From positions 4,594-68,593 of IMG/VR virus record IMGVR_UViG_3300017778_007984: 64,000 nt of DNA. One strand, written 5' to 3'. Shown here one piece after another: positions 432-16,863 of this stretch. The notes under the pieces are model-generated. The model was not told where the DNA came from. It searched no databases and saw only the letters and a program-made list of their open reading frames with translations. Position 1 is the stretch's first letter; each line of letters opens with the position of its first letter. The stretch comes from a virus (Duplodnaviria; Caudoviricetes). Made by a program: the position numbers and the translations under genes.

Positions 432-1064
432 TTAAATCGTAAATTTTTTACATTCTTCTAACGTCAAAATAAATTTTAAATTTGGGATTGTTTTTTTCAA
501 AATTTCAATTTTTTTTATTTGATTTTGATATGCCGCTGGATTTTTTGGGTCCAAGTATAAGTCATAGTCCTTCAGATAAAAATCTGGAAAATAATTGTGT
601 TCAACATTATTTTTGTCTAACCATTTTATTGGTTCTGGTCTAGTCCATTTAATATTTAATTCGTCTAACCTAATTGCTAGAGCTAACTCCCAACTACTAT
701 CTAATAGATACCCTTGATATTCCACAACCCCTTTTCTTAAACGTCGATGATTCGAACTTAACGCTGCTTGTCTCAATTTTTTTTTACTCTCGTCCGTGTG
801 TTTTTTAAAAGGATTTGGATGTTTTTTTCCTTTTAAAGAATGACTTATAGATTCATTATTCAATTTAGCCTTAGTAAATTGATTTGTTGCACCTTTTTTT
901 TGTCGCGCTTTATTCATTAGCTCTACTGAGTTTCTTTTATTCAATTCTGCCAAATATTCTTGTTTTTTTGGATTTAAATCACACCATCTTGTATGATTTG
1001 CAATAAAATTTGTTGGCTTATCGCTAGTATCAAAAATTTGGTCACACCATTTACATTTTTTCAT
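432..1064 (-). CDS. Putative free-standing homing endonuclease (N-terminal CxxC, NUMOD3-like DNA-binding motif, C-terminal PD-(D/E)xK nuclease), 210 aa
   Basis: Start reassigned to MKKCKWCDQ at 1064 because the ORF-track extension runs through tRNA-Arg. Motifs SHSLKGKKHPNPFKKHTDESKKKL and HNYFPDFYLKDYDLYLDPK. Located between two tRNA genes. Confidence 0.65.
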   Translation of the reverse strand: MKKCKWCDQIFDTSDKPTNFIANHTRWCDLNPKKQEYLAELNKRNSVELMNKARQKKGATNQFTKAKLNNESISHSLKGKKHPNPFKKHTDESKKKLRQAALSSNHRRLRKGVVEYQGYLLDSSWELALAIRLDELNIKWTRPEPIKWLDKNNVEHNYFPDFYLKDYDLYLDPKNPAAYQNQIKKIEILKKTIPNLKFILTLEECKKFTI

Positions 1065-1130
1065 ATCGTAAGGTTTATATGAATAAATATAAGCGGATAG
1101 AGCAAAGGTTTTCCCTTCCAGAAAAATTAG

Positions 1131-1202
1131 TAGGCCCACCTGGATTCGAACCAGGAATATCTCATTAGAAGTGAGAGGGTATATCCCTTTACCTATGGGC
1201 CC
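1131..1202 (-). tRNA. tRNA-Arg (anticodon TCT); CCA not encoded
   Basis: Acceptor GGGCCCA/TGGGCCT, anticodon stem-loop TCTCA-CTTCTAA-TGAGA, T arm CCTGG-TTCGAAT-CCAGG. Confidence 0.93.
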
Positions 1203-1230
1203 ATTTTGTCCTACAAATATGAGAAAAAAA

Positions 1231-1632
1231 TTACTTGTCGTCAACAGGATGCAAAACATCAAACAGAAACTGACAATAATATTTTCTACAAATCTGTGGT
1301 CGGATATCATAGATAGAGCAAGAACGCAATGTGGAATTGTAAAATATACAGGGTTTACGTTTTTTTTCCATATCGACCTTCAATGCTGGAAATGAATTAG
1401 GGCTTTGCCAGCAACTTCTTTCGGGAAATAGTTTTGAACCTTCTTCAAATGTATAAAACACTTCTTCAAATTTTACTTTTCTACTAAATCTATCAGACAA
1501 TCTTTCAAGGAAATCTTCCTGGTCAGTGTGAGGTCCAATTATGTAATCCCTATCTTCTAGGTGACAACAACTACCATCGTGGTCTTTTCGGCCATAACAA
1601 TTATGACTACAAATATTTGCGTGTTTACTCAT
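1231..1632 (-). CDS. YkgJ-like cysteine-cluster (putative Fe-S/Zn) protein
   Basis: CSHNC...GSCC N-terminal cluster and PCIFY...CSIYDIRPQICRKYYC C-terminal cluster. Confidence 0.7.
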   Translation of the reverse strand: MSKHANICSHNCYGRKDHDGSCCHLEDRDYIIGPHTDQEDFLERLSDRFSRKVKFEEVFYTFEEGSKLFPERSCWQSPNSFPALKVDMEKKRKPCIFYNSTLRSCSIYDIRPQICRKYYCQFLFDVLHPVDDK

Positions 1633-2020: not shown

Positions 2021-2052
2021 AAATTGTCCAAGGGTGGAGATGGCGGGAATCG

Positions 2053-2275
2053 CAATTGTCACAATTTTTCAATTATGCGTGGACTATATCATCATCTTCT
2101 TCAAGATGTCGGACGCTATTGTGGTATTACGGTAGAAGCGTCTACCACCCACTAGTCTCTGCACCTTCCTGTTCCTACCAGGCTTGGCTCAGGATTGACA
2201 TATCCCTAAGGACTTAGTTTTCCCTGAATTCATCCAATTTTTAATTCAACATCACTGTTGAATGGGTCCGATTTG
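2053..2275 (-). mobile_element. ORF-less group I self-splicing intron, 223 nt, in the tmRNA T-loop
   Basis: P1 exon GGGUU pairs with GACCC with U.G at the splice site; P10 AAUCG pairs with 3' exon CGAUU; P2 8-bp stem with GUGA loop; P3 UUGGAUG/CGUCCGA; P4 UCAGG/CCUGA; P7 GACUA/UAGUC; P8 CAUCUU/AAGAUG; P9 with GAAA loop; terminal G; AAUCCUGAGCC and GUGCAGAGACU core motifs. Confidence 0.93.
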
Positions 2276-2506
2276 AACCCGCGTCTTGCTCAGTTTACCC
2301 ATAAAGGACTACATGCTTAGGACAGGGTTTGTCACACCCTCCGAAATATCTGATTCCTATTTTGCCATCGTCATCAGAAACTGTGGGGTGTTCACTTAAT
2401 CGGTAGAACACCAAACGTTACCTCCATTTCTTTTAAAGATAGAAACCACACCATAAGGACTTCTGTTTCAAGGTATATGTCCCCACCGACCCACGGTTAT
2501 TATAGC

Positions 2507-2572
2507 CTAAGCTACAGTAACTGCTTCAGTTGTAAGAAGACCTACAGCCTGAAGCTTTGCAAAAGTGTTGCC
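2507..2572 (-). other. tmRNA tag reading frame encoding (A)GNTFAKLQAVGLLTTEAVTVA*
   Basis: Resume codon GGC follows TTTAAGT; 21 sense codons to TAG. Resume position inferred by analogy to bacterial tmRNAs. Confidence 0.75.
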
Positions 2573-2684
2573 ACTTAAAAAGCGCTCCCATAGATTAAAG
2601 TGATAGGAAACATCTCACTGCATGCCCCGTATGATTAACTCTGCCAATCAATACCGTTCATCCCCATTATTTCAAAGAACTCTA

Positions 2685-2715
2685 CAAATATAAGTATTTA
2701 TATTGATATGGCAAA
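2685..2715 (-). promoter_or_regulatory. Bacteroidota-type housekeeping promoter (-33 TTTG / -7 TAnnTTTG) for tmRNA
   Basis: Minus strand TTTG (2715-2712), 19-nt spacer, TATATTTG (2692-2685), 20 nt upstream of the tmRNA 5' end. Confidence 0.7.
2695..2701 (+). promoter_or_regulatory. Representative copy of a recurrent TATTTAT motif upstream of genes (putative late promoter)
   Basis: The same motif lies on the sense strand shortly before 16 start codons in the window (listed in findings). Confidence 0.6.
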
Positions 2716-4126
2716 AGGTAAAAATTTATTTTTTTCAGAAAAAGGATATCCTCTAAATGTTGTTAGGTATTCAAATGCTGAGTTATTTTGTGAAGATGCG
2801 CAGGATACAGTATGGTGTCGTGAAGATTTTTTCAATGAGTTTGTTGCTCCATTATTGAAATTTAATGAGGTTTATATTTTGAATTACACCGTTAGTGGGG
2901 ATAAAATGACAAAAATACTAATTGTCCGCTCAACAAATTTTGTAAGAAGGTTTGACGCTAGTGGTATCACACAAACCACCAGTATCCCTACATCCATTCC
3001 TGTTTCAGTTGAGGAGTTATTGGCTAAAAGACCCGATAATCTCACACATAAAATTAAACTATTCATAACTGGTGTTGTTGGTTCGGAAATTTTTGATAAT
3101 ATACTTCACTTTTCAAAATTAATTTACCGTGAGCCTTTGGGTGAATCTATTTTGGTTTTTGATTACGAAGACAATAAAGATATAATTTATGATATGTTCA
3201 GTTACGATGAGGATGATATGAATACTATTGAATGTGCGTTAGAAGATGAAGACCTCGAATGCGAATTGGAAAATGTGGAATATTATATTGATGAAACATT
3301 TTTGGAAGGATATAGCATTTTACCAAATTTTTTTTTAGTTGGAACACAAGCAAAAGAATTGGCAAATAAAATATATCTGGATGTACAGCCTGATTTTCAT
3401 TATGATGATGAAGCGGAGGGTAAAAAAGTAAATAAAATTTTGTACAGTATTGCGCCGGAAGGTATTGAGAATTTTTATAATGCTTGGGTTTATTATTATG
3501 ATAGGAGTAGTTTTGAGGCTATTGCTAGAGGAATTAAGAAGGAGTTAACACAAATAAAAGAGGATACCGGATTTGTGTTGGACCCAGTTAATTTTACCGT
3601 TTCAACCACTTTAGGAAATCTATATTATTACTTATTTTTCAAGAACTTAACCCATCTGCCAATTGAAACTGCTTTATTAAAATTAAGTGATAATTATAAA
3701 TCTGTCAAAAATTTTGGTGGATGGAACGATGCTAAGTATGACCTTGCAACTGACAAGTTTCTTGACAATAATGGGCTCGAGCAAAGAACCCTCCCCATTC
3801 TCAAGGATATTGAGAATAAAATTAATGTAGGGAATATAGATATAATCCGAGATATATTTTTAAAATATGACCTTAGGATAAGTCTTTATAAGAACAACAA
3901 ACACCCCAAGACAGGTAAACCCTTTTGGTTTAAAGATTTGGATGCAAAAGAAGGGATTGTTAAATTATCGGATATGAGTTCTAGTTATAGTAAGACTTGG
4001 GAGATGACCCTCGAAGAATTTATTGATTGGCTCGAAAGTGATGATGCTGTTTTGGAAAGTAAAAATATTTTGTTATCTTTACAGCAAATACTCAAAGATG
4101 ACTCAAGAAAAAATCGACTTACTTAA
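2708..4126 (+). CDS. Hypothetical protein, 472 aa
   Basis: Long open frame preceded by TATTTAT; no motif recognised. Confidence 0.8.
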   Translation: MAKGKNLFFSEKGYPLNVVRYSNAELFCEDAQDTVWCREDFFNEFVAPLLKFNEVYILNYTVSGDKMTKILIVRSTNFVRRFDASGITQTTSIPTSIPVSVEELLAKRPDNLTHKIKLFITGVVGSEIFDNILHFSKLIYREPLGESILVFDYEDNKDIIYDMFSYDEDDMNTIECALEDEDLECELENVEYYIDETFLEGYSILPNFFLVGTQAKELANKIYLDVQPDFHYDDEAEGKKVNKILYSIAPEGIENFYNAWVYYYDRSSFEAIARGIKKELTQIKEDTGFVLDPVNFTVSTTLGNLYYYLFFKNLTHLPIETALLKLSDNYKSVKNFGGWNDAKYDLATDKFLDNNGLEQRTLPILKDIENKINVGNIDIIRDIFLKYDLRISLYKNNKHPKTGKPFWFKDLDAKEGIVKLSDMSSSYSKTWEMTLEEFIDWLESDDAVLESKNILLSLQQILKDDSRKNRLT

Positions 4127-4928
4127 AAAAGTTCTATCCGTACCAACAGCAACTCACCGAGAAGGTATATTGGTTGAATATATTTGCGAATGGCTAAAAG
4201 AAAACAAAATCGAATATTTTATCGATGACATGTTAAACATCTATGCCACAAAGCAAAGTGATGAAAATGTTGAATATTTTCCTTGCGTTATTGCCCATAC
4301 TGACACTGTTCATGGACTAAACGAAATCAACATACAGGAAGAGATGTTAAAAAATGCTCAGGAAGAGGTTAAACTTGCCCTTAAAGCGTATAACGACCAC
4401 GGAATGCCCACTGGTATTGGTGGTGATGATAAAGCCGGTGTATTCGCCTGTATGCAAGTCTTGATGGATTTGCCAAATGTGAAAGCGGCATTTTTTGTTG
4501 CTGAAGAAACTGGTTGCCACGGTTCAAACAAAGCAGATAAAGATTTCTTTTCTAATGTTGGATATGGCATTCAATTCGACGCTCCTGAAAACTGGATGGT
4601 TACCGAACACTGCTGGGGTCAGCGGCTATTTGACAGAGAGTCAGAATTTTTCGAAACTTGCAATAACATCCTCACAGAAGGAATTGGTGAGAGTCTTGAA
4701 TATTTGGTTCACCCTTACACGGACGTTTATTCCCTTCGTGGTAAATTCGATTTTTCCTGTATCAATATTTCAATTGGATATTACGACTACCATACAAAAG
4801 ATGAATATGTTGTAATCGAAGATGTATTTAACGGAATCGAAATGGGAAAAAAAATGATTGTAACTTTAGGAAATCGACTCCACTATCTACAACACGGAAA
4901 AAAATTTACTACTAACTGGTTATATTAA
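4098..4928 (+). CDS. M20/M28-clan Zn-dependent peptidase
   Basis: Metal-ligand motifs AHTDTV, GIGGDDKAG, AEETG, QFDA, YHT; start reassigned to MTQEKID (4098). Confidence 0.8.
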   Translation: MTQEKIDLLKKVLSVPTATHREGILVEYICEWLKENKIEYFIDDMLNIYATKQSDENVEYFPCVIAHTDTVHGLNEINIQEEMLKNAQEEVKLALKAYNDHGMPTGIGGDDKAGVFACMQVLMDLPNVKAAFFVAEETGCHGSNKADKDFFSNVGYGIQFDAPENWMVTEHCWGQRLFDRESEFFETCNNILTEGIGESLEYLVHPYTDVYSLRGKFDFSCINISIGYYDYHTKDEYVVIEDVFNGIEMGKKMIVTLGNRLHYLQHGKKFTTNWLY

Positions 4929-5617
4929 TTTTTTAGGATGTAACTTGGTGGAATAAACTCAAGTGATGTTACATTTACCTGAATTCCAATATTTTTAAGT
5001 TTTTCATCTAAATCGTTGGTAATTGCATCAACCACGGCATTGTGTAAAAATTCATATAAATCTTTTTCGGTTTCGTAATAAACTATTTTGTGGAACGACC
5101 CTTTGTACTCACCCTCATCCCAATCTAGTTCTCCATATCCTCTGTCAGACACATCAACGTAAATGTCTATTTCAGATGAGTATTTGAAATCCATATTGAC
5201 GACATAAATATCAGAAATTTTGTATATGAAATTCAAATCTTGACCACCGCACTTATTGCATCTTAGGACAATATTTTCATCTTTTTTAAAAATTCCCGGG
5301 ATACCTCTGTCATTTAAATAAGTTTCAAGATATGGTTTTACATATTTGATATCTAAAACCTGCATAAGTCGAATAACATTTTTGTAAGATAACCCATTTT
5401 TATCCAAAGATTTTTTAAAAACTCGATAGATATCATCTTTATAATCAGAATCATAATCTTCATTGAGCTTATTTGACTCGTTGTTGTGATTGCACTGGTG
5501 GCAGATATATGGGTCGTGACCTCCTTCAGAGAGCTTCCAGGTCCATCCGCAATTATCGCAAATAACTTTTCCTTTGCCGACTTCTTCTTTTAATACCTTG
5601 AGTATAATGTCCCTCAT
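4925..5617 (-). CDS. Hypothetical protein with Zn-finger-like module and leader MRDIILKVLKEE
   Basis: CDNC...CHQC module; TATTTATA upstream. Confidence 0.75.
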   Translation of the reverse strand: MRDIILKVLKEEVGKGKVICDNCGWTWKLSEGGHDPYICHQCNHNNESNKLNEDYDSDYKDDIYRVFKKSLDKNGLSYKNVIRLMQVLDIKYVKPYLETYLNDRGIPGIFKKDENIVLRCNKCGGQDLNFIYKISDIYVVNMDFKYSSEIDIYVDVSDRGYGELDWDEGEYKGSFHKIVYYETEKDLYEFLHNAVVDAITNDLDEKLKNIGIQVNVTSLEFIPPSYILKN

Positions 5618-5640
5618 ATTCTATAAATACAATTTTGTGT

Positions 5641-5672
5641 AAAAGAAACCCCCCCCTTTTCAGGGAGGGTTT
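5641..5672 (-). terminator. Rho-independent terminator
   Basis: Minus strand AAACCCTCCC-TGAAAA-GGGGGGGGTTT followed by CTTTT. Confidence 0.65.
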
Positions 5673-5693
5673 AAGTGTGTAATGATAAATTTT

Positions 5694-6167
5694 TTAACCC
5701 CTATACGAACTACAGAGAGGTGCTTCCTCCATGCCCCAAATAAGTATCACTAAGATTAATAAGACCGAGAGACCCATGACTACAGCCATAAAATAAGGTG
5801 GTGCATAAAATTGTTCTTGAATGTTTTCAACTTCATTTTCCACATCTGATAACAATGCGTCTAACTCCATTTCAGATTTCGGTTTTTTAAGTGTTGCAAT
5901 TTTCTTTTGAAACTCTGATTTCATTTCTTGAGGAATTGCATTTTTAAACGCTTGGGGACCTTTTTCCAAACCTGTGTTGAAAATTGAGGTAAGCATACCT
6001 CGCAATTTGTTAGGTGCGAGTCTGATAATACGTTCTCCTTTTGCTTTATAGGAATTGCGTTTTTTCGCAAATTTTTGACATTGTTCAGAGTTTACTTGTT
6101 GTTCTTGGATTATCTTTTCGATAAGGTTTACAAGTTTTGATTCAGATAGTCTGATTACTTTTTTCAT
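5694..6167 (-). CDS. Hypothetical protein with MKKxIxLxE leader and C-terminal hydrophobic segment
   Basis: N-terminus MKKVIRLSESKLVNLIEKIIQEQ; FMAVVMGLSVLLILVILIW near the C-terminus. Confidence 0.75.
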   Translation of the reverse strand: MKKVIRLSESKLVNLIEKIIQEQQVNSEQCQKFAKKRNSYKAKGERIIRLAPNKLRGMLTSIFNTGLEKGPQAFKNAIPQEMKSEFQKKIATLKKPKSEMELDALLSDVENEVENIQEQFYAPPYFMAVVMGLSVLLILVILIWGMEEAPLCSSYRG

Positions 6168-6170
6168 AAA

Positions 6171-6518
6171 TTAGTTTCCTCTTAGTTCTTGCACGATTGA
6201 GTAAATCATGGCGATTATGGTTGCGTAGGGGAGAAGTTCTCCTACGACTGTTTTTTTTATGGGGTCATCTCCACGAGTTAGCATCATATAACCGTGTGGG
6301 TCGAATGTTTTTAGGTTTTGTAAAGTTTGTTTGATAAGTTCCGTATCTTTTGATAAAACATCAGCTTGTGATTTGATTTGAGCAACTTTGGCTGGTTCGA
6401 TAACAGATTTTAACTCCTTTGCAGGTAGTTCTATCTTCTCTTGCTCTGATTGCTCTGAAATAACTCTTTCTATAATTCTTGTAAGGTCACTTTCAGTTAA
6501 TTTAACGATTTTTTTCAT
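6171..6518 (-). CDS. Hypothetical protein with MKKxIxLxE leader
   Basis: N-terminus MKKIVKLTESDLTRIIERVISEQ; TATTTATA upstream. Confidence 0.75.
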   Translation of the reverse strand: MKKIVKLTESDLTRIIERVISEQSEQEKIELPAKELKSVIEPAKVAQIKSQADVLSKDTELIKQTLQNLKTFDPHGYMMLTRGDDPIKKTVVGELLPYATIIAMIYSIVQELRGN

Positions 6519-6550
6519 TAAGGCATTTTGTTATAAATACCTTTGAAAAT

Positions 6551-6582
6551 AAAAAAGGGGACTTTCGTCCCCCCCTTTTTTT
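6551..6582. terminator. Bidirectional-looking terminator after clpC
   Basis: A-tract, GGGGAC-TTTC-GTCCCC hairpin, T-tract. Confidence 0.75.
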
Positions 6583-6586
6583 ATTG

Positions 6587-8587
6587 TTAAGAAATTTTCA
6601 CCTGCTCATCGACAATCTTAATGGTATATTTGCGATTTTCTTTGAGTTTACCAATTAGGATTAGCTCAGCGAGGAAGTCCTCAATTTTATCCTGGATAGC
6701 TCGCTTAACTGGACGGGCACCGTATACTGGGTCAAATCCAACTTTTGCGATATACTCTGTAATGGTGGAGTCCATTACAATTTTATATTTCATTTCACCG
6801 ATGCGTTTTGCAAGTTTTTCTAGTTCTAGACCAACGATTTTTTCGATGTTCTCTTTGGTGAGGGTCTCAAAAACGATGGTGTCGTCGATGCGGTTGATAA
6901 ATTCGGGGGAGAAGAAGTTCTTCATCTCTTTCATCAGGATTTGCTTCTTTGCCTCCTCGTTGGAGTACTTATTCGATGAGAAACCAATACCGGCGCCAAA
7001 GTCCTGCAGTTTCTTAACACCAAGGTTGGTGGTCATGATAATCAACGTATTTTTAAAGTTAATCTTGCGTCCCAGGGAATCCGTTGCGTGACCGTCGTCG
7101 AGAATTTGAAGCAGGATGGAGAAGATATCCTTGTGTGCTTTTTCTACCTCATCGAAAAGAATAACCGCATAGGGTTTGTTTTTAACCTGTTCGGTGAGCT
7201 GTCCACCTTCTTCATAACCCACGTATCCCGGAGGCGCGCCCACCAATCTAGAAACAGAGTGTTTTTCTTGATATTCACTCATGTCGACACGAATAAGGGC
7301 GCCTTCAGAGCCAAACATTTCCTTAGCAATTTGTTTTGCCAGGTGGGTCTTTCCAACACCCGTTGAGCCAAGAAAGATAAATGAGCCGATTGGACGATTT
7401 GGGTCTTTGATACCAATACGGTTTCTACGGATTGACTTAACAATCTTTGATACTGCTTCATCCTGACCGATAACATTGCTCATAAGAACCTTGTCCATGT
7501 TTATAAGGGCATTTTTATCGTCGATTGACATTTTGCTAACAGGGATTTTTGTCATGTTTGACACAACATCATATACTTGCTCCACGGAGATGGGAATTCG
7601 AGTGGTGGAGGATGCTTCTTCAAACTTTTTCTTTTCGGAATCGAGTTTCGTTAAAATCTTACGTTCCTTATCGCGAAGCGCTGCGGCTTCTTCATAGTTT
7701 TGTTTTTTAACTACATCCATTTTTTGAATGCGGATTTCTGCGGCTTTTCCCTTGAGTTCCTCAATTATTTCGGGTATTTTTTGTTCGGTTTGACTTCTAG
7801 CTCCCACCTCATCGAGAATGTCAAATGCTTTATCTGGAAACTCCCGGTCGGTGATATAACGGTCAGCAAGCTTTACGCACAGCTCAATGATTTCATCCGA
7901 ATACGATACCTTGTGAAATGCCTCATAACGGTCGCGTACATTGGTAAGAATTTCGATTGTCTCATCAATTGTCGATGGCTCTACGATAACTTTTTGAAAA
8001 CGACGCTCCAAGGCTCCGTCTTTTTCAAATGACTTGCGATATTCATCAAGGGTGGTAGCACCGATACATTGGATTTCTCCACGAGAAAGTGCAGGTTTAA
8101 AGATATTGGAACCATCCAGACTACCCGATGAGTTACCCGAGCCAATTAAGGTGTGGATTTCATCGATAAAGATGATGATATTGGGGTTTTGAGAAAGCTC
8201 CTCAAGAATAACCTTTAAACGTTCTTCAAACTGACCTCGGTATTTGGTACCGGCGACAACAGCCGTTAGGTCAAGGGTAACGATGCGCTTGTCAAGGAGG
8301 TTTTTGGGACAGCTTCCATTTACAATTAACATAGCAAGGCCCTCCACGATTGCAGTTTTGCCGCAACCTGGTTCACCCAATATAATCGGATTGTTTTTCT
8401 TTCTGCGAGAAAGAATCTGTGCGATGCGCACGATTTCTTTTGCCCGACCAATAACGGGGTCAAGCTTCCCTTGCTCGGCAAGTTTATTGAGGTCTCTGGA
8501 AAAATTATCTAGAACAGGTGTTCTAGAATCGGAAGAGGGTTTCTTCCTGCCAAGTGCCTTATCGTCGTCGTCCATTGTTTCGCTCAT
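6587..8587 (-). CDS. clpC: ClpC/ClpA-family Hsp100 AAA+ unfoldase lacking the N-terminal Clp-repeat domain
   Basis: TPVLDNFSRDL, LDPVIGR, Walker A GEPGCGKT and GSTGVGKT, Walker B IFIDEIH and LFDEVEK, UVR-type middle domain (KQNYEEAAALRD), ClpP-docking IGF loop. Probable start MSETMDD at 8587 (ORF track 8611). Confidence 0.92.
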   Translation of the reverse strand: MSETMDDDDKALGRKKPSSDSRTPVLDNFSRDLNKLAEQGKLDPVIGRAKEIVRIAQILSRRKKNNPIILGEPGCGKTAIVEGLAMLIVNGSCPKNLLDKRIVTLDLTAVVAGTKYRGQFEERLKVILEELSQNPNIIIFIDEIHTLIGSGNSSGSLDGSNIFKPALSRGEIQCIGATTLDEYRKSFEKDGALERRFQKVIVEPSTIDETIEILTNVRDRYEAFHKVSYSDEIIELCVKLADRYITDREFPDKAFDILDEVGARSQTEQKIPEIIEELKGKAAEIRIQKMDVVKKQNYEEAAALRDKERKILTKLDSEKKKFEEASSTTRIPISVEQVYDVVSNMTKIPVSKMSIDDKNALINMDKVLMSNVIGQDEAVSKIVKSIRRNRIGIKDPNRPIGSFIFLGSTGVGKTHLAKQIAKEMFGSEGALIRVDMSEYQEKHSVSRLVGAPPGYVGYEEGGQLTEQVKNKPYAVILFDEVEKAHKDIFSILLQILDDGHATDSLGRKINFKNTLIIMTTNLGVKKLQDFGAGIGFSSNKYSNEEAKKQILMKEMKNFFSPEFINRIDDTIVFETLTKENIEKIVGLELEKLAKRIGEMKYKIVMDSTITEYIAKVGFDPVYGARPVKRAIQDKIEDFLAELILIGKLKENRKYTIKIVDEQVKIS

Positions 8588-8666
8588 GTTTTTATAATTT
8601 GATTTAAGCAAAGGTTAGTCAAAAAATGGACATTTCCAAATCCTTGGCATAAAAAAAATTAAAAAG

Positions 8667-8747
8667 GACAAGTTGTCATATTGTCAGGTTATTTATTAGG
8701 GGGTGTATGACAACTTGTCAGTGTTTTGCTTTTGGCATTTGCATTGC
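8667..8747. promoter_or_regulatory. Operator-like 14-bp inverted repeat plus sigma54-like -24/-12 element between divergent clpC and UVR genes
   Basis: GACAAGTTGTCATA (8667-8680) and TATGACAACTTGTC (8706-8719) are perfect reverse complements; TGGCA-N6-TTGC at 8733-8747 has GG and GC separated by 10 nt. Confidence 0.5.
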
Positions 8748-8783
8748 GTATCATAGAAAAATAAAAATTAAAAAAAACAAAAA

Positions 8784-9212
8784 ATGTCAAAAAGAAGAAT
8801 ATTCGAAGATTTGGATTCAATGATAAATTCCTTTTTAAACTCCCAATTTGACCCCTTTGCAATGCGGGACAACAGAAACACTGAAACTGGCAAGGACAAA
8901 CACGGCAACTGGTCAAAAGAAACTTTTACATCAGAGGATGGATTGATTCAATTCACCACCATCTTTAGGGGGGCAAATTCACCCAATCAAAAAGAAAATG
9001 AGTCTGAAATCAACAAGTTAAAAACCCTATTGCAAAAAGCAATTAACGAACAAGAGTTTGAAATGGCTGTTGAGTTTCGAGACCGCATAAAATCCCTGGA
9101 GGAAAACAAAGACAAAATCACCGCTTTGGAAAATGACCTCAAACAAGCAATCAATAAACAAGAGTTTGAAAAAGCAATTGAAATTAGAGATGAACTAAAA
9201 AAACTCAAATAA
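8784..9212 (+). CDS. Tandem UVR (UvrB/UvrC coiled-coil) domain protein, candidate Clp adaptor
   Basis: Two repeats: LQKAINEQEFEMAVEFRDRIK and LKQAINKQEFEKAIEIRDELK. Confidence 0.8.
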   Translation: MSKRRIFEDLDSMINSFLNSQFDPFAMRDNRNTETGKDKHGNWSKETFTSEDGLIQFTTIFRGANSPNQKENESEINKLKTLLQKAINEQEFEMAVEFRDRIKSLEENKDKITALENDLKQAINKQEFEKAIEIRDELKKLK

Positions 9213-9234
9213 CCAATAATACCATGTTTTTTGG

Positions 9235-9261
9235 ACCCCTGGCGAAAGCTGGGGGTTTTTT
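9235..9261 (+). terminator. Rho-independent terminator
   Basis: ACCCCTGGC-GAAA-GCTGGGGGT followed by a T tract. Confidence 0.8.
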
Positions 9262-9274
9262 GTATTTATATGTT

Positions 9275-9952
9275 ATGAACCTACAAGAACAAATATCAAG
9301 AATCAAAGAGGTGATGGTGAAAAATGACATCCACATTACCGTCAAAGAGCAAAAGGTGGACGAGGTTAACTGGGATGATGTTGTTGATATAATTTCAGGG
9401 GTTGCTGATGGAATACCTGGAACAGGTAATTTGGTTTCGTTAGGTTTAGATTTAGGACATACTTTAAGTTATTTTTATCGAAGTTATTATGCAAAGGATG
9501 AATTTGAAAAAATTGAATATGCACTTTTAGGGATAATGACTGCGTGTATGGCTTATGTTCCGGTTGCTGGAAATGCCACTAATATTATATTGAGACAGGG
9601 AATCAGTGGATTACTGAAAAAGACCCCTGACGACATTATCCGTTGGGCAATAAGTAAAGGAATAATAAATTATCGTGTACTTTTTGGTAAAGATAAATTT
9701 AAATATTCTATATTATTGCTCATGGTCAGGCTATTCAAAGATGAAGCTATCGAATATCTTTCAGCCGCAATTAAAAATCTTGGTGCTTTGATGAATGGAT
9801 TGGAAAAATATTCTTATCTGCCCGGAGTTACTGAAGTTATAAAATACATATCAAAAATTGTTAATGTTTTGAAAGACATCAATAATCCAGAACTTATTAA
9901 AATTGCGGAAGAAGTTTTGAAAAAATCAAATAATTTGACAAACTTTGATTAA
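9275..9952 (+). CDS. Hypothetical protein with MNLQEQI leader
   Basis: Start reassigned to MNLQEQISRIKEVM (9275), after the terminator and TATTTATA at 9263-9270. Confidence 0.75.
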   Translation: MNLQEQISRIKEVMVKNDIHITVKEQKVDEVNWDDVVDIISGVADGIPGTGNLVSLGLDLGHTLSYFYRSYYAKDEFEKIEYALLGIMTACMAYVPVAGNATNIILRQGISGLLKKTPDDIIRWAISKGIINYRVLFGKDKFKYSILLLMVRLFKDEAIEYLSAAIKNLGALMNGLEKYSYLPGVTEVIKYISKIVNVLKDINNPELIKIAEEVLKKSNNLTNFD

Positions 9953-9957
9953 GTAAT

Positions 9958-10290
9958 ATGAACCTGCAGGAACAAATCTCAAGAATTCAATCAATGATGG
10001 GAATTATCAATGAGACAAATTTTTTTTTCATAAGAAGAGCAACTCCAGCAGAAATAGCCAGTTATTTCGATGTGTTCGATGACAAAACTTTTGACGAAAC
10101 AGATAACTACGTGGATTATAAATATAATTTGGTGTTGGCTTCGTTGGAACACGTTTTATGGGTTAAATTTGAGTTGGGTTGGGAACAATTACCCGAAAAA
10201 GAAGAAATAGCCTATATTAATCTCGTATCAGAAATTTACGACAATGAAATAAGAAAATTGTATAATAAACATCCAATAAGGCGATTATGA
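9958..10290 (+). CDS. Hypothetical protein with MNLQEQI leader
   Basis: N-terminus MNLQEQISRIQSMMGIINE. Confidence 0.75.
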   Translation: MNLQEQISRIQSMMGIINETNFFFIRRATPAEIASYFDVFDDKTFDETDNYVDYKYNLVLASLEHVLWVKFELGWEQLPEKEEIAYINLVSEIYDNEIRKLYNKHPIRRL

Positions 10291-11186
10291 ATCTACAAGA
10301 ACAAATATTGAGAATACAAGAGGTGATGGGAATAAAACCCACTAAAAAGGTTTATGATTATGAAAAAGGTAGAAATACCGTTCCTGAAAGACTACCATTC
10401 GATGTTGATAAGTTGGTTGACCTTGGAGTTGTTTTTGTTACACCGGCAATTGATGGTGACCCGAAATCAAAAACATATAACGAATGGTTAGACAAACCTT
10501 ATTCACACCTAATTACTTTGATGAATATAAATAAATCGAATAAGGATTCTTGGGTACATAAAGCCATTACTAAAAAAGCATCAACCCAAAAATGGAAAGA
10601 TAATTTTGTTGATAAATTATATGATGGGAAGTACAACCAAATACTATGGAGTTTGGAAAAACTTGGTATAGACCCTATGAGTGTGTTGATTGATGACGAA
10701 TCCGAAGAAGTAAAAGAAGGACTACACGACACATCTTGGGAAAATGAAAAGGGTGATAAGATTACTCTTATTGATTTATTGAATGCCACAGAAGAAATCC
10801 CCGTTCAGAAAATATCTGTTGAGGAATTGAAACCTTATTTATTATCTTGGGATAACGACCCCGAAGAAATTGAAAAAATAGAGAAAGCCGATTTACAATA
10901 CCCCATTTTGATTTTTGTTACATCTAACGGAGAATTCATATCCATTATTGATGGACACCATAGAGCTCAAAAAGCAGCAAGAAAAGGGTTGGAAACAATC
11001 AAGGCAAAGATTATCAATATCGATTGTTTACCAAAACATATCAGAAAAGTCTTTTCTCGTCTTGGTAATCAACAAGAAATGAGTGAAGCTGAAATAACAG
11101 AAAGATGCTGGAAAGGCTACACTCAGAAAGGAATGAAAACTATGTTTGGTAAACGATACCCTAACTGCGTTAAAAAAACAAAATAA
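10287..11186 (+). CDS. ParB/Srx-like domain protein with MNLQEQI leader and C-terminal CWKGY...PNCV module
   Basis: YPILIF...IIDGHHRAQKA is a ParB-N-like motif; ATGA overlap with the upstream gene. Confidence 0.7.
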   Translation: MNLQEQILRIQEVMGIKPTKKVYDYEKGRNTVPERLPFDVDKLVDLGVVFVTPAIDGDPKSKTYNEWLDKPYSHLITLMNINKSNKDSWVHKAITKKASTQKWKDNFVDKLYDGKYNQILWSLEKLGIDPMSVLIDDESEEVKEGLHDTSWENEKGDKITLIDLLNATEEIPVQKISVEELKPYLLSWDNDPEEIEKIEKADLQYPILIFVTSNGEFISIIDGHHRAQKAARKGLETIKAKIINIDCLPKHIRKVFSRLGNQQEMSEAEITERCWKGYTQKGMKTMFGKRYPNCVKKTK

Positions 11187-11187
11187 A

Positions 11188-11430
11188 ATGGGAATAAAAA
11201 GAGAAGAAATCAAAGGAACCATTATCCTTAACGAAATTGAATCCGGAACCATTGTTCGTAGCCAATACGATACGGAAAAGAAAGACATGATTGTGGAATT
11301 TAAAAATGGAACTCGATATCAATACAACGAAGTCCCCCACGCAATCTATACCAAATTTAGAATGGCAGAATCCCAGGGTAAATATTTTTCCGGGGAAATT
11401 GCCAGGACATTTAAATACAATAAACTCTAA
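11188..11430 (+). CDS. KTSC domain protein
   Basis: YDTEKKDMIVEFKNGTRYQYNEVPHAIYTKFRMAESQGKYF matches the KTSC pattern; start reassigned to MGIKREE. Confidence 0.85.
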   Translation: MGIKREEIKGTIILNEIESGTIVRSQYDTEKKDMIVEFKNGTRYQYNEVPHAIYTKFRMAESQGKYFSGEIARTFKYNKL

Positions 11431-11450
11431 CGTTTGCGTATTTATAGAAG

Positions 11451-12203
11451 ATGGCTCAAATATCTACAATTTTAAAAAGTTTTGCTGTTCGTGATACCCT
11501 AAATCCAAAGGTATGGGAAAACCCAGACGACCCCAAAAAAGCAACCCTTAAACCAAAGGTCAAAGAAGCCCTTACAAAAATTGCAAATGACTTCGAAGAA
11601 ACCCTAGCAGAGGAGGTCAAAGTAGATGATGTTGTATTAACTGGAAGCCTATCGAATTATAACTGGTCAGAATATTCAGATTTTGACCTGCACCTTATAA
11701 TTGATTATAAAAAATTTGGAAAACAAATTGTACTTTATAAAGATTTGTTTAACCTAAAGAAGCAACTTTATAATCAAAAACACGATTTTAAAATCTATGG
11801 ATATCCTGTGGAATTATACCCCCAGGATGCCGAAGAAGCACATTTTGCTTCGGGGGTATATTCCATTAAAAATGGCGAGTGGATTAGCAAACCATCAAAA
11901 GAAAAACCACAACTCGAAAGTTTGGTGCTCACCAAAAAAATAGACTCCTGGGTAGATAAAATCGAGAGTCTTATTACCAATATCAAAAAAGAAGGGCTCT
12001 CTCCTAATGAAAAAAATGTGGAAAAACTTAAAGAAAAACTTAAAGATTATCGCAAATCAGGACTAGAAAAAGAGGGGGAATATTCCTACGAAAATCTTGT
12101 TTTTAAATACTTGCGTAGGTCCGGACTTTTGGAGAAATTATACGATACTGTCAACCGACAAACCGATAAAGAGTTGTCTGTTGAGGTAAAAATGTTGGAT
12201 TAA
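11451..12203 (+). CDS. Pol-beta superfamily nucleotidyltransferase
   Basis: VVLTGSLSNYNWSEYSDFDLHL (GS...DxD) and a third acidic residue in YPVELY. Confidence 0.75.
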   Translation: MAQISTILKSFAVRDTLNPKVWENPDDPKKATLKPKVKEALTKIANDFEETLAEEVKVDDVVLTGSLSNYNWSEYSDFDLHLIIDYKKFGKQIVLYKDLFNLKKQLYNQKHDFKIYGYPVELYPQDAEEAHFASGVYSIKNGEWISKPSKEKPQLESLVLTKKIDSWVDKIESLITNIKKEGLSPNEKNVEKLKEKLKDYRKSGLEKEGEYSYENLVFKYLRRSGLLEKLYDTVNRQTDKELSVEVKMLD

Positions 12204-12270
12204 TCTTTTGTTTGATATTTATTTATTAAGTTAATTATAAAACGAGCAATATTTATAGAAAAAAAAGTCC

Positions 12271-13122
12271 ATGGCGTTGAATTATTTTATTGGAATTTCT
12301 TGTACGGGGCAACCCTTCAGATATTTAGCTACTCAAGATACTATTGTTTCGGGTAAAATTTATGAATTATTAGCAGGGTCAACAAACATTGGTTGTTGGA
12401 CCCTAACTTCTTTTGATGAAACTCCACTAGCCCAAGTTGTTACTGTATTTAATGGCCCATGGGAAAACTGTGTTGATTGTCTTGGGGACTTGACACCAAC
12501 GCCAACGGAATCACCTACCTCCACACCCACACTAACACCAACAAATACCCCCACAAAAACGGTAACACCAACAAATACCGCAACTCAAACTCAAACTCCA
12601 ACCCCAAGTATAACATCATCTGCAACTGCAACTCCAACAAATACTCAAACACCAACACCAAGTGTTACTAATACTCAAACACCAACACCAAGTGTTACTA
12701 ATACTCAAACACCAAGTTCGACCCAAACACCAACACCAAGTGTTACTAATACTCAAACACCAACACCAAATGTTACTAATACTCGAACACCAACACAAAC
12801 TCCAACAGTTACAAATACTCAAACTATTACACCGACTAATACAACAACACCTACCAATACACCAACCCCTAGTATAACTGCTAGTCCTACTACAACAGGA
12901 ACTGCAACTCCTACTCCAACATCAACAAGTTTTGGGGTATTTGATGTAAACGTACAATATGAAGCCGAGGCTTGTGTAGATTGTCCAGACACATCACCAA
13001 CAGTTGTTCCATACCCGCACCCAGCCGACTGGGTTCCAGTTGGGCCTGATGGTGGGAAACAAGGAACTGTAATCGATTTGAGTGCGGTACAACTTGGTGG
13101 AATGCACGGCCTTAACAATTAA
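12271..13122 (+). CDS. Thr/Pro-rich repeat protein with Cys-containing terminal domains, probable virion protein
   Basis: About 150-aa TP-rich core between CWTL...CVDCL and CVDCP ends; TATTTATA upstream. Confidence 0.75.
   Translation: MALNYFIGISCTGQPFRYLATQDTIVSGKIYELLAGSTNIGCWTLTSFDETPLAQVVTVFNGPWENCVDCLGDLTPTPTESPTSTPTLTPTNTPTKTVTPTNTATQTQTPTPSITSSATATPTNTQTPTPSVTNTQTPTPSVTNTQTPSSTQTPTPSVTNTQTPTPNVTNTRTPTQTPTVTNTQTITPTNTTTPTNTPTPSITASPTTTGTATPTPTSTSFGVFDVNVQYEAEACVDCPDTSPTVVPYPHPADWVPVGPDGGKQGTVIDLSAVQLGGMHGLNN
12640..12790 (+). repeat. Coding 30-bp tandem repeat (AATACTCAAACACCAACACCAAGTGTTACT) encoding NTQTPTPSVT
   Basis: Two adjacent exact copies at 12640-12699 plus partial and variant copies; in frame; no spacers. 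Confidence 0.85.
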
Positions 13123-13142
13123 AAATTAATAAACAAAAAAAC

Positions 13143-14321
13143 ATGGCAAAATTAAAAGCAATCGGCAGCGAAAAACTCGAAGGAGCCGATAAACTAAAAA
13201 GAATTATGGAAATTGCCACCTATCGGATGCCTTTAACCAGCATCAACGAAAAGGCATCTGAATATTCCATAAACCTATCCGATGGGATGGATTATCACAT
13301 TGTAAAAGAAAAACAAGGTTACATTCTAAAAAAAGGTATTAATGAATCAACTCTTGATTACATGGAACCAATGAAGAATAGAAAGTATTTTTCTTCATAC
13401 GCACAAGCTCTTAGAAAGTTAAACTTGATTATCAAAGAGAACAATGAACTTAACGGACAAAGTGAGGAACTTAAATTGTTTGGAGAACAAAAAAAGTTTG
13501 TTCTTAAAACACCAACCCCTCCAGCACCTGTAGCTGAGTTACCGGCAGTTCCTGCTGAACCAGCAGTGCTTCCTGAACCAGAATTACCCTCGGTAGATGG
13601 TGAAACTGATGATATGGGTATGGATTTGGGGATGGATGTTGATATGAACGCAGACACCTCCATGGAAGAACCTGTTGGTATGGAACAAGATATGGAAGAG
13701 AAAGTTTCTTTTAAACTTATTCAAAAATTGACAGGTAAGCTAACTCAAAAAATGAGAGCTTTGGAGTCTCAGGATGGTATGAGTTCTGAGGACATTAAAT
13801 ATGTTGTTAATATGGTGCTTTCTGCTGTCGATTTGACTAAACTTGAACCAGAAGATATGGAAGATATAATGGCTAAGTTTGAAGATGTTGAGGCTGATGT
13901 TGATATGGACTCTGATATGGGAATGGATTCGGATATGGAGATGGATTTAGACTTTGATGCTGAAACTAGTTTAGAAGAACCAATGGAAGGTATGGGTTCT
14001 GAAGATTATGATTTTGAGATGTCAATGAACGAAAGTAAAATTGATAAAGTATTAAGCAAATATTTTGAAGTTAGTTCTTCTGAAATCGAACATTCAAAAA
14101 AATTGTTTGAAGAAAGACAAGGAGTTTCTACAACTAAATTTAGCTTTACAATTAATAAAGTTGAAAATTTATCAGAAACACTCGAACAGGAACTTGCTAG
14201 TAAAAAATTCTTGGAAGAAAATAAAGGATTTGAATTCGTTGGTAGAACCAATAAAAAAAATCTTATATTCGAAAGTAAAAATAAACAAGTAAAAATTACT
14301 ACCGAAGGAATTGTTCAATGA
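13143..14321 (+). CDS. Acidic hypothetical protein, probable prohead core component
   Basis: D/E/M-rich segments, many I/L-x-E motifs, upstream of terminase and portal. Confidence 0.6.
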   Translation: MAKLKAIGSEKLEGADKLKRIMEIATYRMPLTSINEKASEYSINLSDGMDYHIVKEKQGYILKKGINESTLDYMEPMKNRKYFSSYAQALRKLNLIIKENNELNGQSEELKLFGEQKKFVLKTPTPPAPVAELPAVPAEPAVLPEPELPSVDGETDDMGMDLGMDVDMNADTSMEEPVGMEQDMEEKVSFKLIQKLTGKLTQKMRALESQDGMSSEDIKYVVNMVLSAVDLTKLEPEDMEDIMAKFEDVEADVDMDSDMGMDSDMEMDLDFDAETSLEEPMEGMGSEDYDFEMSMNESKIDKVLSKYFEVSSSEIEHSKKLFEERQGVSTTKFSFTINKVENLSETLEQELASKKFLEENKGFEFVGRTNKKNLIFESKNKQVKITTEGIVQ

Positions 14322-14713
14322 GATATCTAACTTTTATTAATGGGCTAGGTCCTGATTATAAGGGTGACAATCTCTATGAATTTATTTTTTCAGAAAATTT
14401 AGATGTTTGGGGCGATACTTGGGAAGCAGCTCCCGCAAATGGGTACCCATCACCTCCAAACATAGACAACATTCAAAAAGTTGGTGTGTTGCGGAAATCA
14501 AATATTAAATTAGAATTAGCACAAAATTCCGATTACTTCAGTATGTCCGATGCCATGGACGGAGTTGTCGCTTTAGGTTGGGAAATTGGTGAATATGAAG
14601 AAAATAATAGATTGGTTTTCCGTTTTGGACAAGAAGAAGATTCAGTAAAAGATAAATTATACGAGAAAGATTTGATTCTCGAATTTGAAAAAAATGTTGT
14701 GTATGAAAACTAA
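14318..14713 (+). CDS. Hypothetical protein (head module)
   Basis: ATGA overlap with the upstream gene. Confidence 0.75.
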   Translation: MRYLTFINGLGPDYKGDNLYEFIFSENLDVWGDTWEAAPANGYPSPPNIDNIQKVGVLRKSNIKLELAQNSDYFSMSDAMDGVVALGWEIGEYEENNRLVFRFGQEEDSVKDKLYEKDLILEFEKNVVYEN

Positions 14714-15581
14714 AGATAAAATTATTCAATTAGTTGAATTAGGGCTATCCCCCGAAACAATTTATAAGTTAAACGAAAATCAAATTGATGTTTTACTCAA
14801 GAAAATTTTTTTAACTGAACAGGGTGCTGTTATGATTTCTGCCGATAAAGCATCAAGTGACCCTCAAAAATTAAAAGACTTAACCTCAAGAGGAATTAAT
14901 GTTCGAATTGAAGGTGAAGTTGCTGAGGATAATGTTGATGTCATGGGTTCAGCCATGGGTGGTGCAACAACACAAGCTCCACACCAAATAATGTCTCCAG
15001 ATGGAATGAGTGATGATAGCGATGCTCAGATTGACAAATATGAAGATATGACTGAAGCTGAGAATAAGGATGAAAACAATCCTTGGGCTATCTGTCATTC
15101 TCAGCTTGGTCCAAAAAAAACCGCAAAATTTGAACGATGTGTTAAAGCCGTTAAAAAAAGTTTAAAAGAAGGAACCTCTCCCATGGATTTTTTCTTTGAG
15201 GAAAAAATCGTATCTTTGGTTGAGAATTATTTAGAACCCAAGATGACAAAAGAAGAATTTCTAGAAACCGTTGCCGAACAAGGTGTTATACGTCGCTCCG
15301 TTTATAAACCTAAATCAAAAAAAGGGAAATCTGCAAGAGTGAGTAGACCAATTGCTGATTTAGGGATGTTGCAGTCAATGAAAGAAGCTGACACTGAAAC
15401 AACTCCAGTTAAGCCAACAACTAAGCCTAACACCAAACCTACTATTAGACCTGCCCACCCTGGTAAAAAACCTTTTGAGGGTCCAAATCCAGGTCCTAAG
15501 GCCTCAAAAAAAGAAATCGAACAAGCTAAAAATGACGTATTGAAATTAATACAGGGAATCCTTCGTGATGGCAAAAAATAG
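14703..15581 (+). CDS. Hypothetical protein with small Cys module (NPWAIC...KFERCV)
   Basis: Probable start MKTKDKII at 14703; operon-like overlaps. Confidence 0.7.
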   Translation: MKTKDKIIQLVELGLSPETIYKLNENQIDVLLKKIFLTEQGAVMISADKASSDPQKLKDLTSRGINVRIEGEVAEDNVDVMGSAMGGATTQAPHQIMSPDGMSDDSDAQIDKYEDMTEAENKDENNPWAICHSQLGPKKTAKFERCVKAVKKSLKEGTSPMDFFFEEKIVSLVENYLEPKMTKEEFLETVAEQGVIRRSVYKPKSKKGKSARVSRPIADLGMLQSMKEADTETTPVKPTTKPNTKPTIRPAHPGKKPFEGPNPGPKASKKEIEQAKNDVLKLIQGILRDGKK

Positions 15582-16857: not shown

Positions 16858-16863
16858 GATTTT

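Follow-up and report, generated by a model that had tools for sequence, protein, structure and literature searches.

A conserved gene cluster of ClpC, peptidase and tmRNA in a large phage, with a possible tag-and-degrade role

Introduction

The closest described systems to the locus reported here are bacterial trans-translation (tmRNA and SmpB, with ClpXP or ClpAP and SspB) and the ClpC-ClpP system of Firmicutes (with MecA and McsA/McsB). The locus lies on a 64-kb stretch of DNA (the window in the following) out of the 68.6-kb IMG/VR virus record IMGVR_UViG_3300017778_007984. It comprises genes for a ClpC-type AAA+ unfoldase without N-domain, a zinc exopeptidase and a transfer-messenger RNA (tmRNA) that is split by an intron and encodes its own tag. 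A small protein with two UVR motifs is transcribed divergently from clpC. No paper that describes a cluster of ClpC, peptidase and tmRNA was found in the literature.

Like bacterial trans-translation, the phage locus has a tRNA-like domain with the G3:U70 pair, a resume codon, a short tag frame ending in small hydrophobic residues and alanine, and nearby a Clp unfoldase with a ClpP-docking loop. However, the phage tag is 21-22 residues long with a conserved internal lysine and a Gly-Leu pair, the phage side lacks SmpB as well as ClpX, the unfoldase is of the ClpC type and the tmRNA gene is phage-borne and interrupted. Intron-form tmRNA genes are described from bacteria (PMC11915505). As in those genes, a group I intron is placed in the T-loop at the Bacteroidia-type site, with U before it and G at its end, but here the gene belongs to a phage genome and the intron is patchy among sister phages.

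With Firmicutes ClpC the phage protein shares the D1-M-D2 architecture, the aromatic residue and the arginine at the tip of the middle domain (M-domain) and the ClpP loop. In difference to it, the phage protein naturally has no N-domain, on which MecA, McsB and phospho-arginine substrates depend. A UVR motif is also present in McsA, whereas the phage partner protein has two of them and no zinc finger. The N-domain is likewise missing from the engineered S. aureus ΔN-ClpC M-domain mutants, whose released M-domain form degrades an SsrA-tagged substrate (PMC5699869). In that study ΔN-ClpC together with ClpP was inactive on GFP-SsrA, and the resting state mediated by the M-domain still formed. With the tip mutation F436A or R443A, ΔN-ClpC degraded GFP-SsrA as fast as MecA-activated ClpC, and degradation by these tip mutants needed the terminal Ala-Ala (PMC5699869; Carroni et al.).

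Parts of such systems have been reported from phages before, namely tmRNAs and SmpB from huge phages (PMC7162821), ClpP, ClpS, ClpA and ClpX from jumbo phages (PMC7824862) and a tmRNA together with ClpXP from Bacillus phage G (PMC12484599). The same kinds of genes (tmRNA, ClpP and Clp ATPases) are found there as scattered auxiliary genes. Those reports list the genes separately, whereas in the phages described here ClpC, peptidase and tmRNA constitute one fixed cluster that goes along with a partner slot beside clpC, a clade-specific tag and the T-loop intron.

Results

ClpC, Peptidase and tmRNA Are Found Together in Related Phages

The completeness of the record was estimated by CheckV at about 22%, and the genome should therefore be near 300 kb; sister contigs of 98-100% completeness measure 295-326 kb. 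The source is a tailed lake phage of roughly this size.

Relatives of its ClpC are encoded on 320 viral contigs, of which the best 80 (68-93% identity) were compared. In all loci with at least 3.1 kb of flanking sequence (65/65), clpC is followed after 2-6 kb by a tmRNA gene of the same strand, and the 15 loci without tmRNA all end within 3.03 kb. The peptidase is present in 75 of the 80 loci, and as the five misses are limited by the available flank, it is found in every locus where it could be expected (75/75). The order of peptidase, a 472-amino-acid protein family and tmRNA is constant, zero to four extra genes vary between clpC and the peptidase gene, and the cluster is also present in the near-complete genomes G006-G008.

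The original prediction, made from the sequence of the window, had put tmRNA, peptidase, ClpC and the double-UVR protein together as one tag-and-degrade module. All four parts are present, with the amendment that the tmRNA gene is intron-split. Concerning their co-occurrence across relatives, the prediction held for tmRNA and peptidase and failed for the UVR protein, which is encoded in only 36 of 75 loci.

A ClpC Without N-Domain

The Pfam domains found in the unfoldase are AAA, AAA_lid_9, UVR, AAA_2 and ClpB_D2-small. A Clp_N domain was not detected by Pfam; about 25 residues stand ahead of D1, and the 172 bp upstream are intergenic. Among solved structures, S. aureus ClpC is the best match (E 3.8e-223, query residues 24-665 against 153-795), with about 58% identity to the phage protein. 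The Walker A and B motifs are intact in both AAA+ modules and so are the pore loops KYR and GYVG. At the position of the ClpP loop the phage protein reads GIGF, aligned with the loop of S. aureus, and a ClpP-docking loop of the form [IVLM]-G-F is kept in 78 of 78 ClpC sequences of the clade.

The M-domain is of the short, single-hairpin UVR type (UVR match at residues 292-319, tip QNYEEAAALRD). In line with this, the phage protein aligns to ClpC in one continuous stretch, but to ClpB in two separate ones. A tyrosine occupies the position of S. aureus F436 and an arginine that of R443, and both are kept in all 78 clade members. The nearest bacterial ClpC homologues, from Bacteroidota, have an N-domain of 150-200 amino acids in each case, and the loss of this domain in the phage is therefore derived. 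Judged from these alignments, the phage ClpC has lost its N-domain and keeps the ATPase motifs, the M-domain tip and the ClpP-docking loop, which agrees with the domain layout originally proposed (an IGF loop and a UVR middle domain without an N-domain).

In one sister genome of 99% completeness the clpC gene (G007:C1:226125-228131) contains a single in-frame TAG, which could be a sequencing error, the mark of a pseudogene or a reassigned stop codon. ClpC without N-domain is also encoded by the huge phages LR745206, LR756502 and LR756508 (47-57% identity). Within 12 kb of ClpC in these three phages no tmRNA, UVR protein or peptidase was found.

An Intron-Split tmRNA With a Clade-Specific Tag

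Neither ARAGORN nor Rfam calls a tmRNA in the raw window, because a 223-nt group I intron interrupts the T-loop. The intron itself is recognized by Rfam (RF00028, 88.6 bits with a gathering score of 50, E 2.8e-21, 2286..2060 on the minus strand). Read on the minus strand, the 5' end of the tmRNA is at 2665 and the 3' strand of the acceptor ends at 2033. After in-silico excision of the 223 nt (2275..2053) between GACGCGGGTT and CGATTCCCGCC, ARAGORN calls a standard tmRNA of 410 nt with the 21-residue tag GNTFAKLQAVGLLTTEAVTVA. The cut was placed after the U of the U-G pair and before CGATT, which restores the 7-nt T-loop and the T arm. Three relatives (L010, L012 and L015) have uninterrupted tmRNA genes of 410 nt with a junction identical to the predicted ligation, and intron-less relatives reach 63-82 bits against RF00023 (gathering score 47). 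The G3:U70 pair is present (5' GGGGATG pairs with CATCTCC, with G3 opposite T), and in the spliced sequence ARAGORN finds a resume codon, a short tag frame and a stop. The 3' end is encoded as ACCC, with the CCA incompletely encoded.

The intron is inserted between nucleotides 2 and 3 of the T-loop, it is preceded by a U that pairs with a G in P1 and its last nucleotide is G. By these sequence features it is a group I intron, and its splicing is predicted. It was found in 14 of 61 complete tmRNA genes when the window is counted (13 of 60 relatives), and its state changes at least nine times on the ClpC tree, the behaviour expected of a mobile element. Introns at this position of the T-loop have been reported from the class Bacteroidia only (PMC11915505). 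Apart from the intron, the tmRNA appears to be of standard form. A mere tmRNA fragment that acts as an integration site was considered as well and rejected, as the gene is full length and the tag is under purifying selection.

In the close relative L007 (L007:15140-15360) the intron is 194 nt long, and judged from the U-G pair and the terminal G its splice site precedes that of the window by one nucleotide of the T-loop, leaving the ligated sequence unchanged. Upstream of the tmRNA in the window, about 17-24 nt from the mature 5' end, TATATTTG is located at 2682-2689 on the minus strand; it fits TAnnTTTG, the -7 promoter consensus of Bacteroidota. About 1 kb from the intron, which contains no open reading frame (ORF), lies an endonuclease-like ORF with a NUMOD3 motif (432-1310, minus strand), between tRNA-Arg (1130-1202) and tRNA-Gly (3-76).

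The tags of 58 relatives were analyzed together with that of the window, giving 39 distinct 21-codon sequences that encode 32 distinct peptides. Across the clade the tag length is 21-22 residues. Residues G1, K6, G11 and A21 are invariant, while L12 and V18 are each kept in 31 of the 32 peptides. The entropy at codon positions 1, 2 and 3 is 0.84, 0.49 and 1.20, so that third positions vary most, and 61% of the single-base codon differences are synonymous versus 26% expected. These values show that the frame is translated and that its peptide product matters. When the tag core was back-translated and searched as a pattern in 185,579 prokaryote species (one genome each), no match was obtained. 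Taken from these comparisons, the tag is specific to the phage clade and selected at the peptide level.

The closest cellular homologues of the phage ClpC belong without exception to Bacteroidota (54-59% identity), and the tag starts with glycine, as does the native Bacteroides tag GETNYALAA (bioRxiv 10.1101/2025.03.18.644028). Because of these homologues, the initial glycine and the site of the tmRNA intron, the host is probably a member of the Bacteroidota. A close cultured phage was not found, as ClpC identity stays below 60% throughout the GenBank phage set, in which many of the "phage" ClpC matches are host-like fragments.

Sister Phages Encode ClpP but No SmpB

In the full record, about 22% of the genome, neither ClpP nor SmpB was found, which extends the same observation made earlier for the window. 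However, sister contigs, including three genomes of 98-100% completeness, encode a 225-amino-acid ClpP 13-28 kb downstream of ClpC, and the equivalent spot is past the left end of the studied record. A total of 143 viral contigs carry relatives of this ClpP; they include those of L007 and L008, in which exon 1 of the tmRNA is 95.7% identical to that of the window. The ClpP of L081 matches PF00574 with an E-value of 1.3e-57 and can be aligned over its full length to S. pneumoniae ClpP, with the Ser-His-Asp triad in place. In the sister phages clpP is flanked by carbamoyltransferase genes and not by head genes. The best PHROG match of this ClpP is "head maturation protease"; a function as prohead protease was rejected on account of the full-length similarity to cellular ClpP and the genomic context away from head genes.

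The phage had been proposed to hijack the ClpP of its host. As relatives encode a bona fide, full-length ClpP with its catalytic triad, such a hijack is not needed. SmpB was absent from ten related records, three of them 98-100% complete, and we infer that the phage tmRNA depends on host SmpB.

A Variable Partner Gene Under a Putative Operator

The gene of the tandem-UVR protein is situated directly upstream of clpC in divergent orientation, 172 bp apart. The protein, which has the two UVR motifs predicted for it, is built of an N-terminal helix, a three-strand region and two UVR hairpins, and in each hairpin the sequence QEFExAxExRD copies the tip of the ClpC M-domain. The best NCBIfam match is McsA (NF053706), confined to the UVR region and with 39.9 bits against a cut-off of 210. 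The full-length McsA model is unmatched, and the protein contains zero cysteines and hence no CxxC zinc fingers.

Members of the UVR family in the fetched loci were recovered by tblastn and jackhmmer. In the 75 scorable loci the slot beside clpC is taken by the UVR protein (36) or by Hsp20 (27) or is empty (12), and no locus has both. The Hsp20 of the slot is a small heat-shock protein (PF00011, E ~1e-13). On the ClpC tree the slot changes its state at least eight times. The near-complete genomes of the UVR type encode no Hsp20 genome-wide, and the Hsp20-type contigs contain no UVR motif beyond that of ClpC itself. A profile comparison of the two families gave a 17-residue N-terminal match with 15% probability, and a common origin is not claimed. 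The arrangement may resemble the Hsp20-ClpG/ClpK pairs of bacterial heat-resistance loci, in which a small heat-shock protein gene is likewise paired with an Hsp100 gene; ClpG and ClpK are not known to have a ClpP loop and carry extended N-domains.

The end of the tag was compared with the type of the slot. Of the UVR-type loci, 26 of 28 have a tag ending in x-V-A, as do 9 of 9 loci with an empty slot; in 18 of 19 Hsp20-type loci the tag ends in V-A-A or V-G-A. That the C-terminus of the tag tracks the partner type is suggestive, with four independent contrasts making the comparison underpowered.

The divergent promoter region between clpC and the UVR gene contains a pair of TGACA-N3-TGTCA palindromes. 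Elsewhere in the window this motif has one match only, at chance level. In the relatives it occurs 5.9 times per kb in the region upstream of clpC and 0.037 times per kb in the remaining 1.28 Mb, and 35 of 35 UVR-type and 26 of 27 Hsp20-type loci contain it. With one mismatch at most, the palindrome was also found in the upstream regions of 5 of 31 clpC genes of Bacteroidota (L186, L187, L188, L200 and L208), 124-362 nt before the start, where about 0.5 would be expected; in other phyla it was found in 1 of 26. The phage operator may borrow a stress regulator of the host.

A distant viral group (L265-L269) encodes a tandem-UVR protein of 130 amino acids, whose gene lies 5 bp upstream of a phage DnaK/Hsp70 and is preceded by the same palindrome at a distance of about 77 nt. 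Among the other genes of these loci are those of a glutamine-synthetase-like protein and a thioesterase, and within 5 kb of the DnaK-linked UVR genes no ClpC, peptidase or tmRNA was found. As the UVR protein is optional, shares its slot with Hsp20 and has homologues before DnaK, it is better described as a chaperone-associated accessory than as the fixed tag adaptor that had been assumed, and the family is probably stress-regulated.

The Peptidase and Neighboring Genes

With Pfam Peptidase_M20 (PF01546) the peptidase gives a sub-threshold match (21.4 bits, gathering threshold 24.6, E 2.5e-4), and with phrog_4191 ("peptidase") a match at 2.3e-33. In 32 homologues the residues H67, D69, D110, E136, E137, D161 and H232 are invariant; they cover the co-catalytic metal ligands and the catalytic Asp and Glu. 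The AlphaFold2 (AF2) model, with a mean predicted local distance difference test (pLDDT) of 91.9, was matched by Foldseek to PepT, TET/M42 and the catalytic domain of DapE (E 1e-9 to 1e-13). The inserted lid/dimerisation domain is missing from the 276-residue protein. According to conserved residues and modelled fold, it is a lone clan-MH exopeptidase catalytic domain with all metal ligands, in accordance with the M20/M28-type assignment made at the outset. Enzymes of the PepT, TET/M42 and DapE type act on short peptides, and a role downstream of ClpP would thus be plausible.

The 472-amino-acid family next to the peptidase was found in 67 loci by transitive clustering. Its mean column identity is 19% without any invariant column, and no match was obtained in Pfam, PHROG or NCBIfam. 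The three small genes between clpC and the peptidase gene occur in 9-28 loci only and are outside the conserved core; the 157- and 115-amino-acid proteins have a common N-terminal leader. Common N-terminal leaders are found more generally in otherwise unrelated small proteins encoded at 5694-6518 (minus strand) and 9224-11186 (plus strand). MKK-[IV]-[VI]-[KR]-L-[ST]-E-S is the start of two of these, and MNLQEQI-x-RI occurs in three. By tblastn the MKK-type leader was also matched to short stretches in relatives.

On the plus strand at 11146-12203, a KTSC-domain protein (E 4e-16) and a 250-amino-acid protein with a weak match to Pol-beta-type nucleotidyltransferases are encoded, and both are conserved beside the ClpC partner slot (68 and 75 loci, respectively). 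Given the incomplete CCA of the tmRNA, a role of this region in adding or repairing 3' ends is conceivable. Further downstream (12271-13122, plus strand) follows a 283-amino-acid protein with a long Thr/Pro-rich repeat core (PTPS/TNTQT units) and Cys-containing ends. The coordinates of the main features are compiled in Table 1.

Table 1. Features of the window discussed in the text (positions refer to the 64-kb stretch).
Feature	Position	Strand	Remarks
tmRNA gene, intron form	2033..2665	minus	exon 1 = 2276..2665, exon 2 = 2033..2052
Group I intron without ORF, in T-loop (predicted)	2053..2275	minus	RF00028 covariance-model match
Tag reading frame, 21 codons + TAG	2507..2572	minus	ARAGORN on spliced form
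472-aa fast-evolving protein	2708..4126	plus	always between peptidase and tmRNA
Clan-MH (M20/M42-like) zinc exopeptidase, catalytic domain only, 276 aa	4098..4928	plus	likely start ATG 4098
Three variable small genes (230-aa zinc-ribbon, 157-aa and 115-aa proteins)	4925..6518	minus	
N-domain-less ClpC-type AAA+ unfoldase, 674 aa	6587..8611	minus	probable start ATG 8587
Pair of TGACA-N3-TGTCA palindromes	8666..8720	no strand	ClpC/UVR divergent promoter region
Tandem-UVR protein, 142 aa	8784..9212	plus	two UVR motifs, E 3.5e-16
Large terminase	16864-18624		
Portal	18665-20533		
Major head protein	24628-26463		
aa, amino acids.

Discussion

The cluster may be a conserved proteostasis island whose parts are joined in a phage-run tag-and-degrade route. 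We regard this as plausible, with a chance of being correct that comes near to even without reaching it. In such a route, the phage tmRNA together with host SmpB would rescue ribosomes that stall during infection and append the phage tag. The head-less ClpC, stacked on the phage ClpP, would unfold and degrade tagged and damaged proteins. Removal of the N-domain would expose the pore of ClpC to C-terminal degrons, and by analogy the phage ClpC might read the phage tag. The tandem-UVR protein would mimic the M-domain tip, bind to the middle domain of ClpC and shift the unfoldase out of the resting state mediated by the M-domain. Such an action on the M-domain is suggested by the combination of a natural ΔN-ClpC with an intact tip and a partner in which the tip motif is repeated in each UVR motif. 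The UVR protein would then be an optional modulator and not the reader of the tag. Finally, the exopeptidase would trim the products of ClpP to amino acids for reuse.

Several observations weigh against a functional coupling of these parts. In most loci synteny extends over the whole block from 2708 to 18624 (about 16 kb), reaching the terminase, portal and capsid genes; adjacency alone hence does not prove coupling and may be inherited and not selected. The tmRNA is followed by tRNA genes on the same strand and thus heads a tRNA cluster, clpP is located outside the cluster, and the putative operator spans clpC and its partner only, including neither the tmRNA nor the peptidase gene. Of the huge phages, LR745206 and LR756502 have two or three clpP genes and no real tmRNA, and a ClpC-ClpP pair therefore needs no phage tmRNA; in LR756508 the tmRNA is about 360 kb away from ClpC. 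For the UVR protein, the confidence of the AF2 model is low (pLDDT 65), and in the comparison of tag end with partner type 3-4 of the four phylogenetically independent contrasts are concordant (p 0.125-0.25). The synteny, the tRNA genes, the extent of the operator and the huge phages, together with the tandem-UVR homologues beside DnaK that have neither ClpC nor tmRNA nearby, would fit genes that are neighbors by descent only. In that case the tmRNA would belong to the block of tRNA and translation genes, just add to the capacity for rescuing ribosomes and leave its tag to host proteases, ClpC-ClpP and its partner would be a separate protease for stress or host takeover, and the peptidase would be an unrelated auxiliary. 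This is a real possibility, although we think that it will probably not hold, as ClpC, peptidase and tmRNA co-occur without exception in 65 loci, down to 68% ClpC identity and despite many insertions and deletions. Moreover, a long, clade-specific tag with conserved internal positions implies a dedicated reader, and the C-terminus of the tag tends to change with the partner of ClpC.

ClpC could also do without ClpP and serve as a disaggregase in its own right or as an assembly chaperone of a very large virion, with the Hsp20 holdase or the UVR protein as its helper, comparable to the Hsp20-ClpG/ClpK heat-resistance loci. Hsp20 indeed occupies the partner slot of 27 loci, the cluster is about 8 kb away from the terminase, portal and major head genes, and Clp ATPases of jumbo phages have been proposed to help virion assembly (PMC7824862). 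However, the ClpP-docking loop is kept in every one of the 78 ClpC sequences, and the near-complete genomes encode a full-length ClpP with intact triad, which lies among carbamoyltransferase genes and not among head genes, making this explanation improbable. A phage without any ClpP of its own, in which ClpC would dock on the ClpP of the host and the UVR protein would be the obligatory, tag-reading adaptor, is in our view highly improbable. The lack of clpP in the window and in the 68.6-kb record and the IGF loop of ClpC would agree with it, but the record covers only about 22% of the genome, the position at which relatives, including L007/L008, carry clpP would fall off its left end, and roughly one half of the clade has no UVR protein.

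The tag-and-degrade route might also be realized as a private degron system, which in our opinion is rather unlikely. The tag would then be read poorly by host proteases and well only by the head-less phage ClpC-ClpP, the UVR protein would be a natural decoy of the M-domain tip that switches ClpC on, and the phages with Hsp20 would have co-adapted the C-terminus of their tag. If true, this would be a natural orthogonal tag-protease pair and a new class of ClpC activator.

Even with separate parts, the locus offers testable subjects, namely the alternation of Hsp20 and tandem-UVR protein under one operator, the placement of the same UVR family ahead of a phage DnaK, and the mobile intron at the tmRNA site of the Bacteroidia type. 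Should the parts prove to be linked, theirs would be the first pathway of tagging and degradation to be encoded by a virus, with tag, unfoldase, protease and peptide-recycling enzyme in one phage. It would in addition represent a natural experiment on the control of ClpC without N-domain and provide a ready-made orthogonal degron-protease pair for Bacteroidota genetics.

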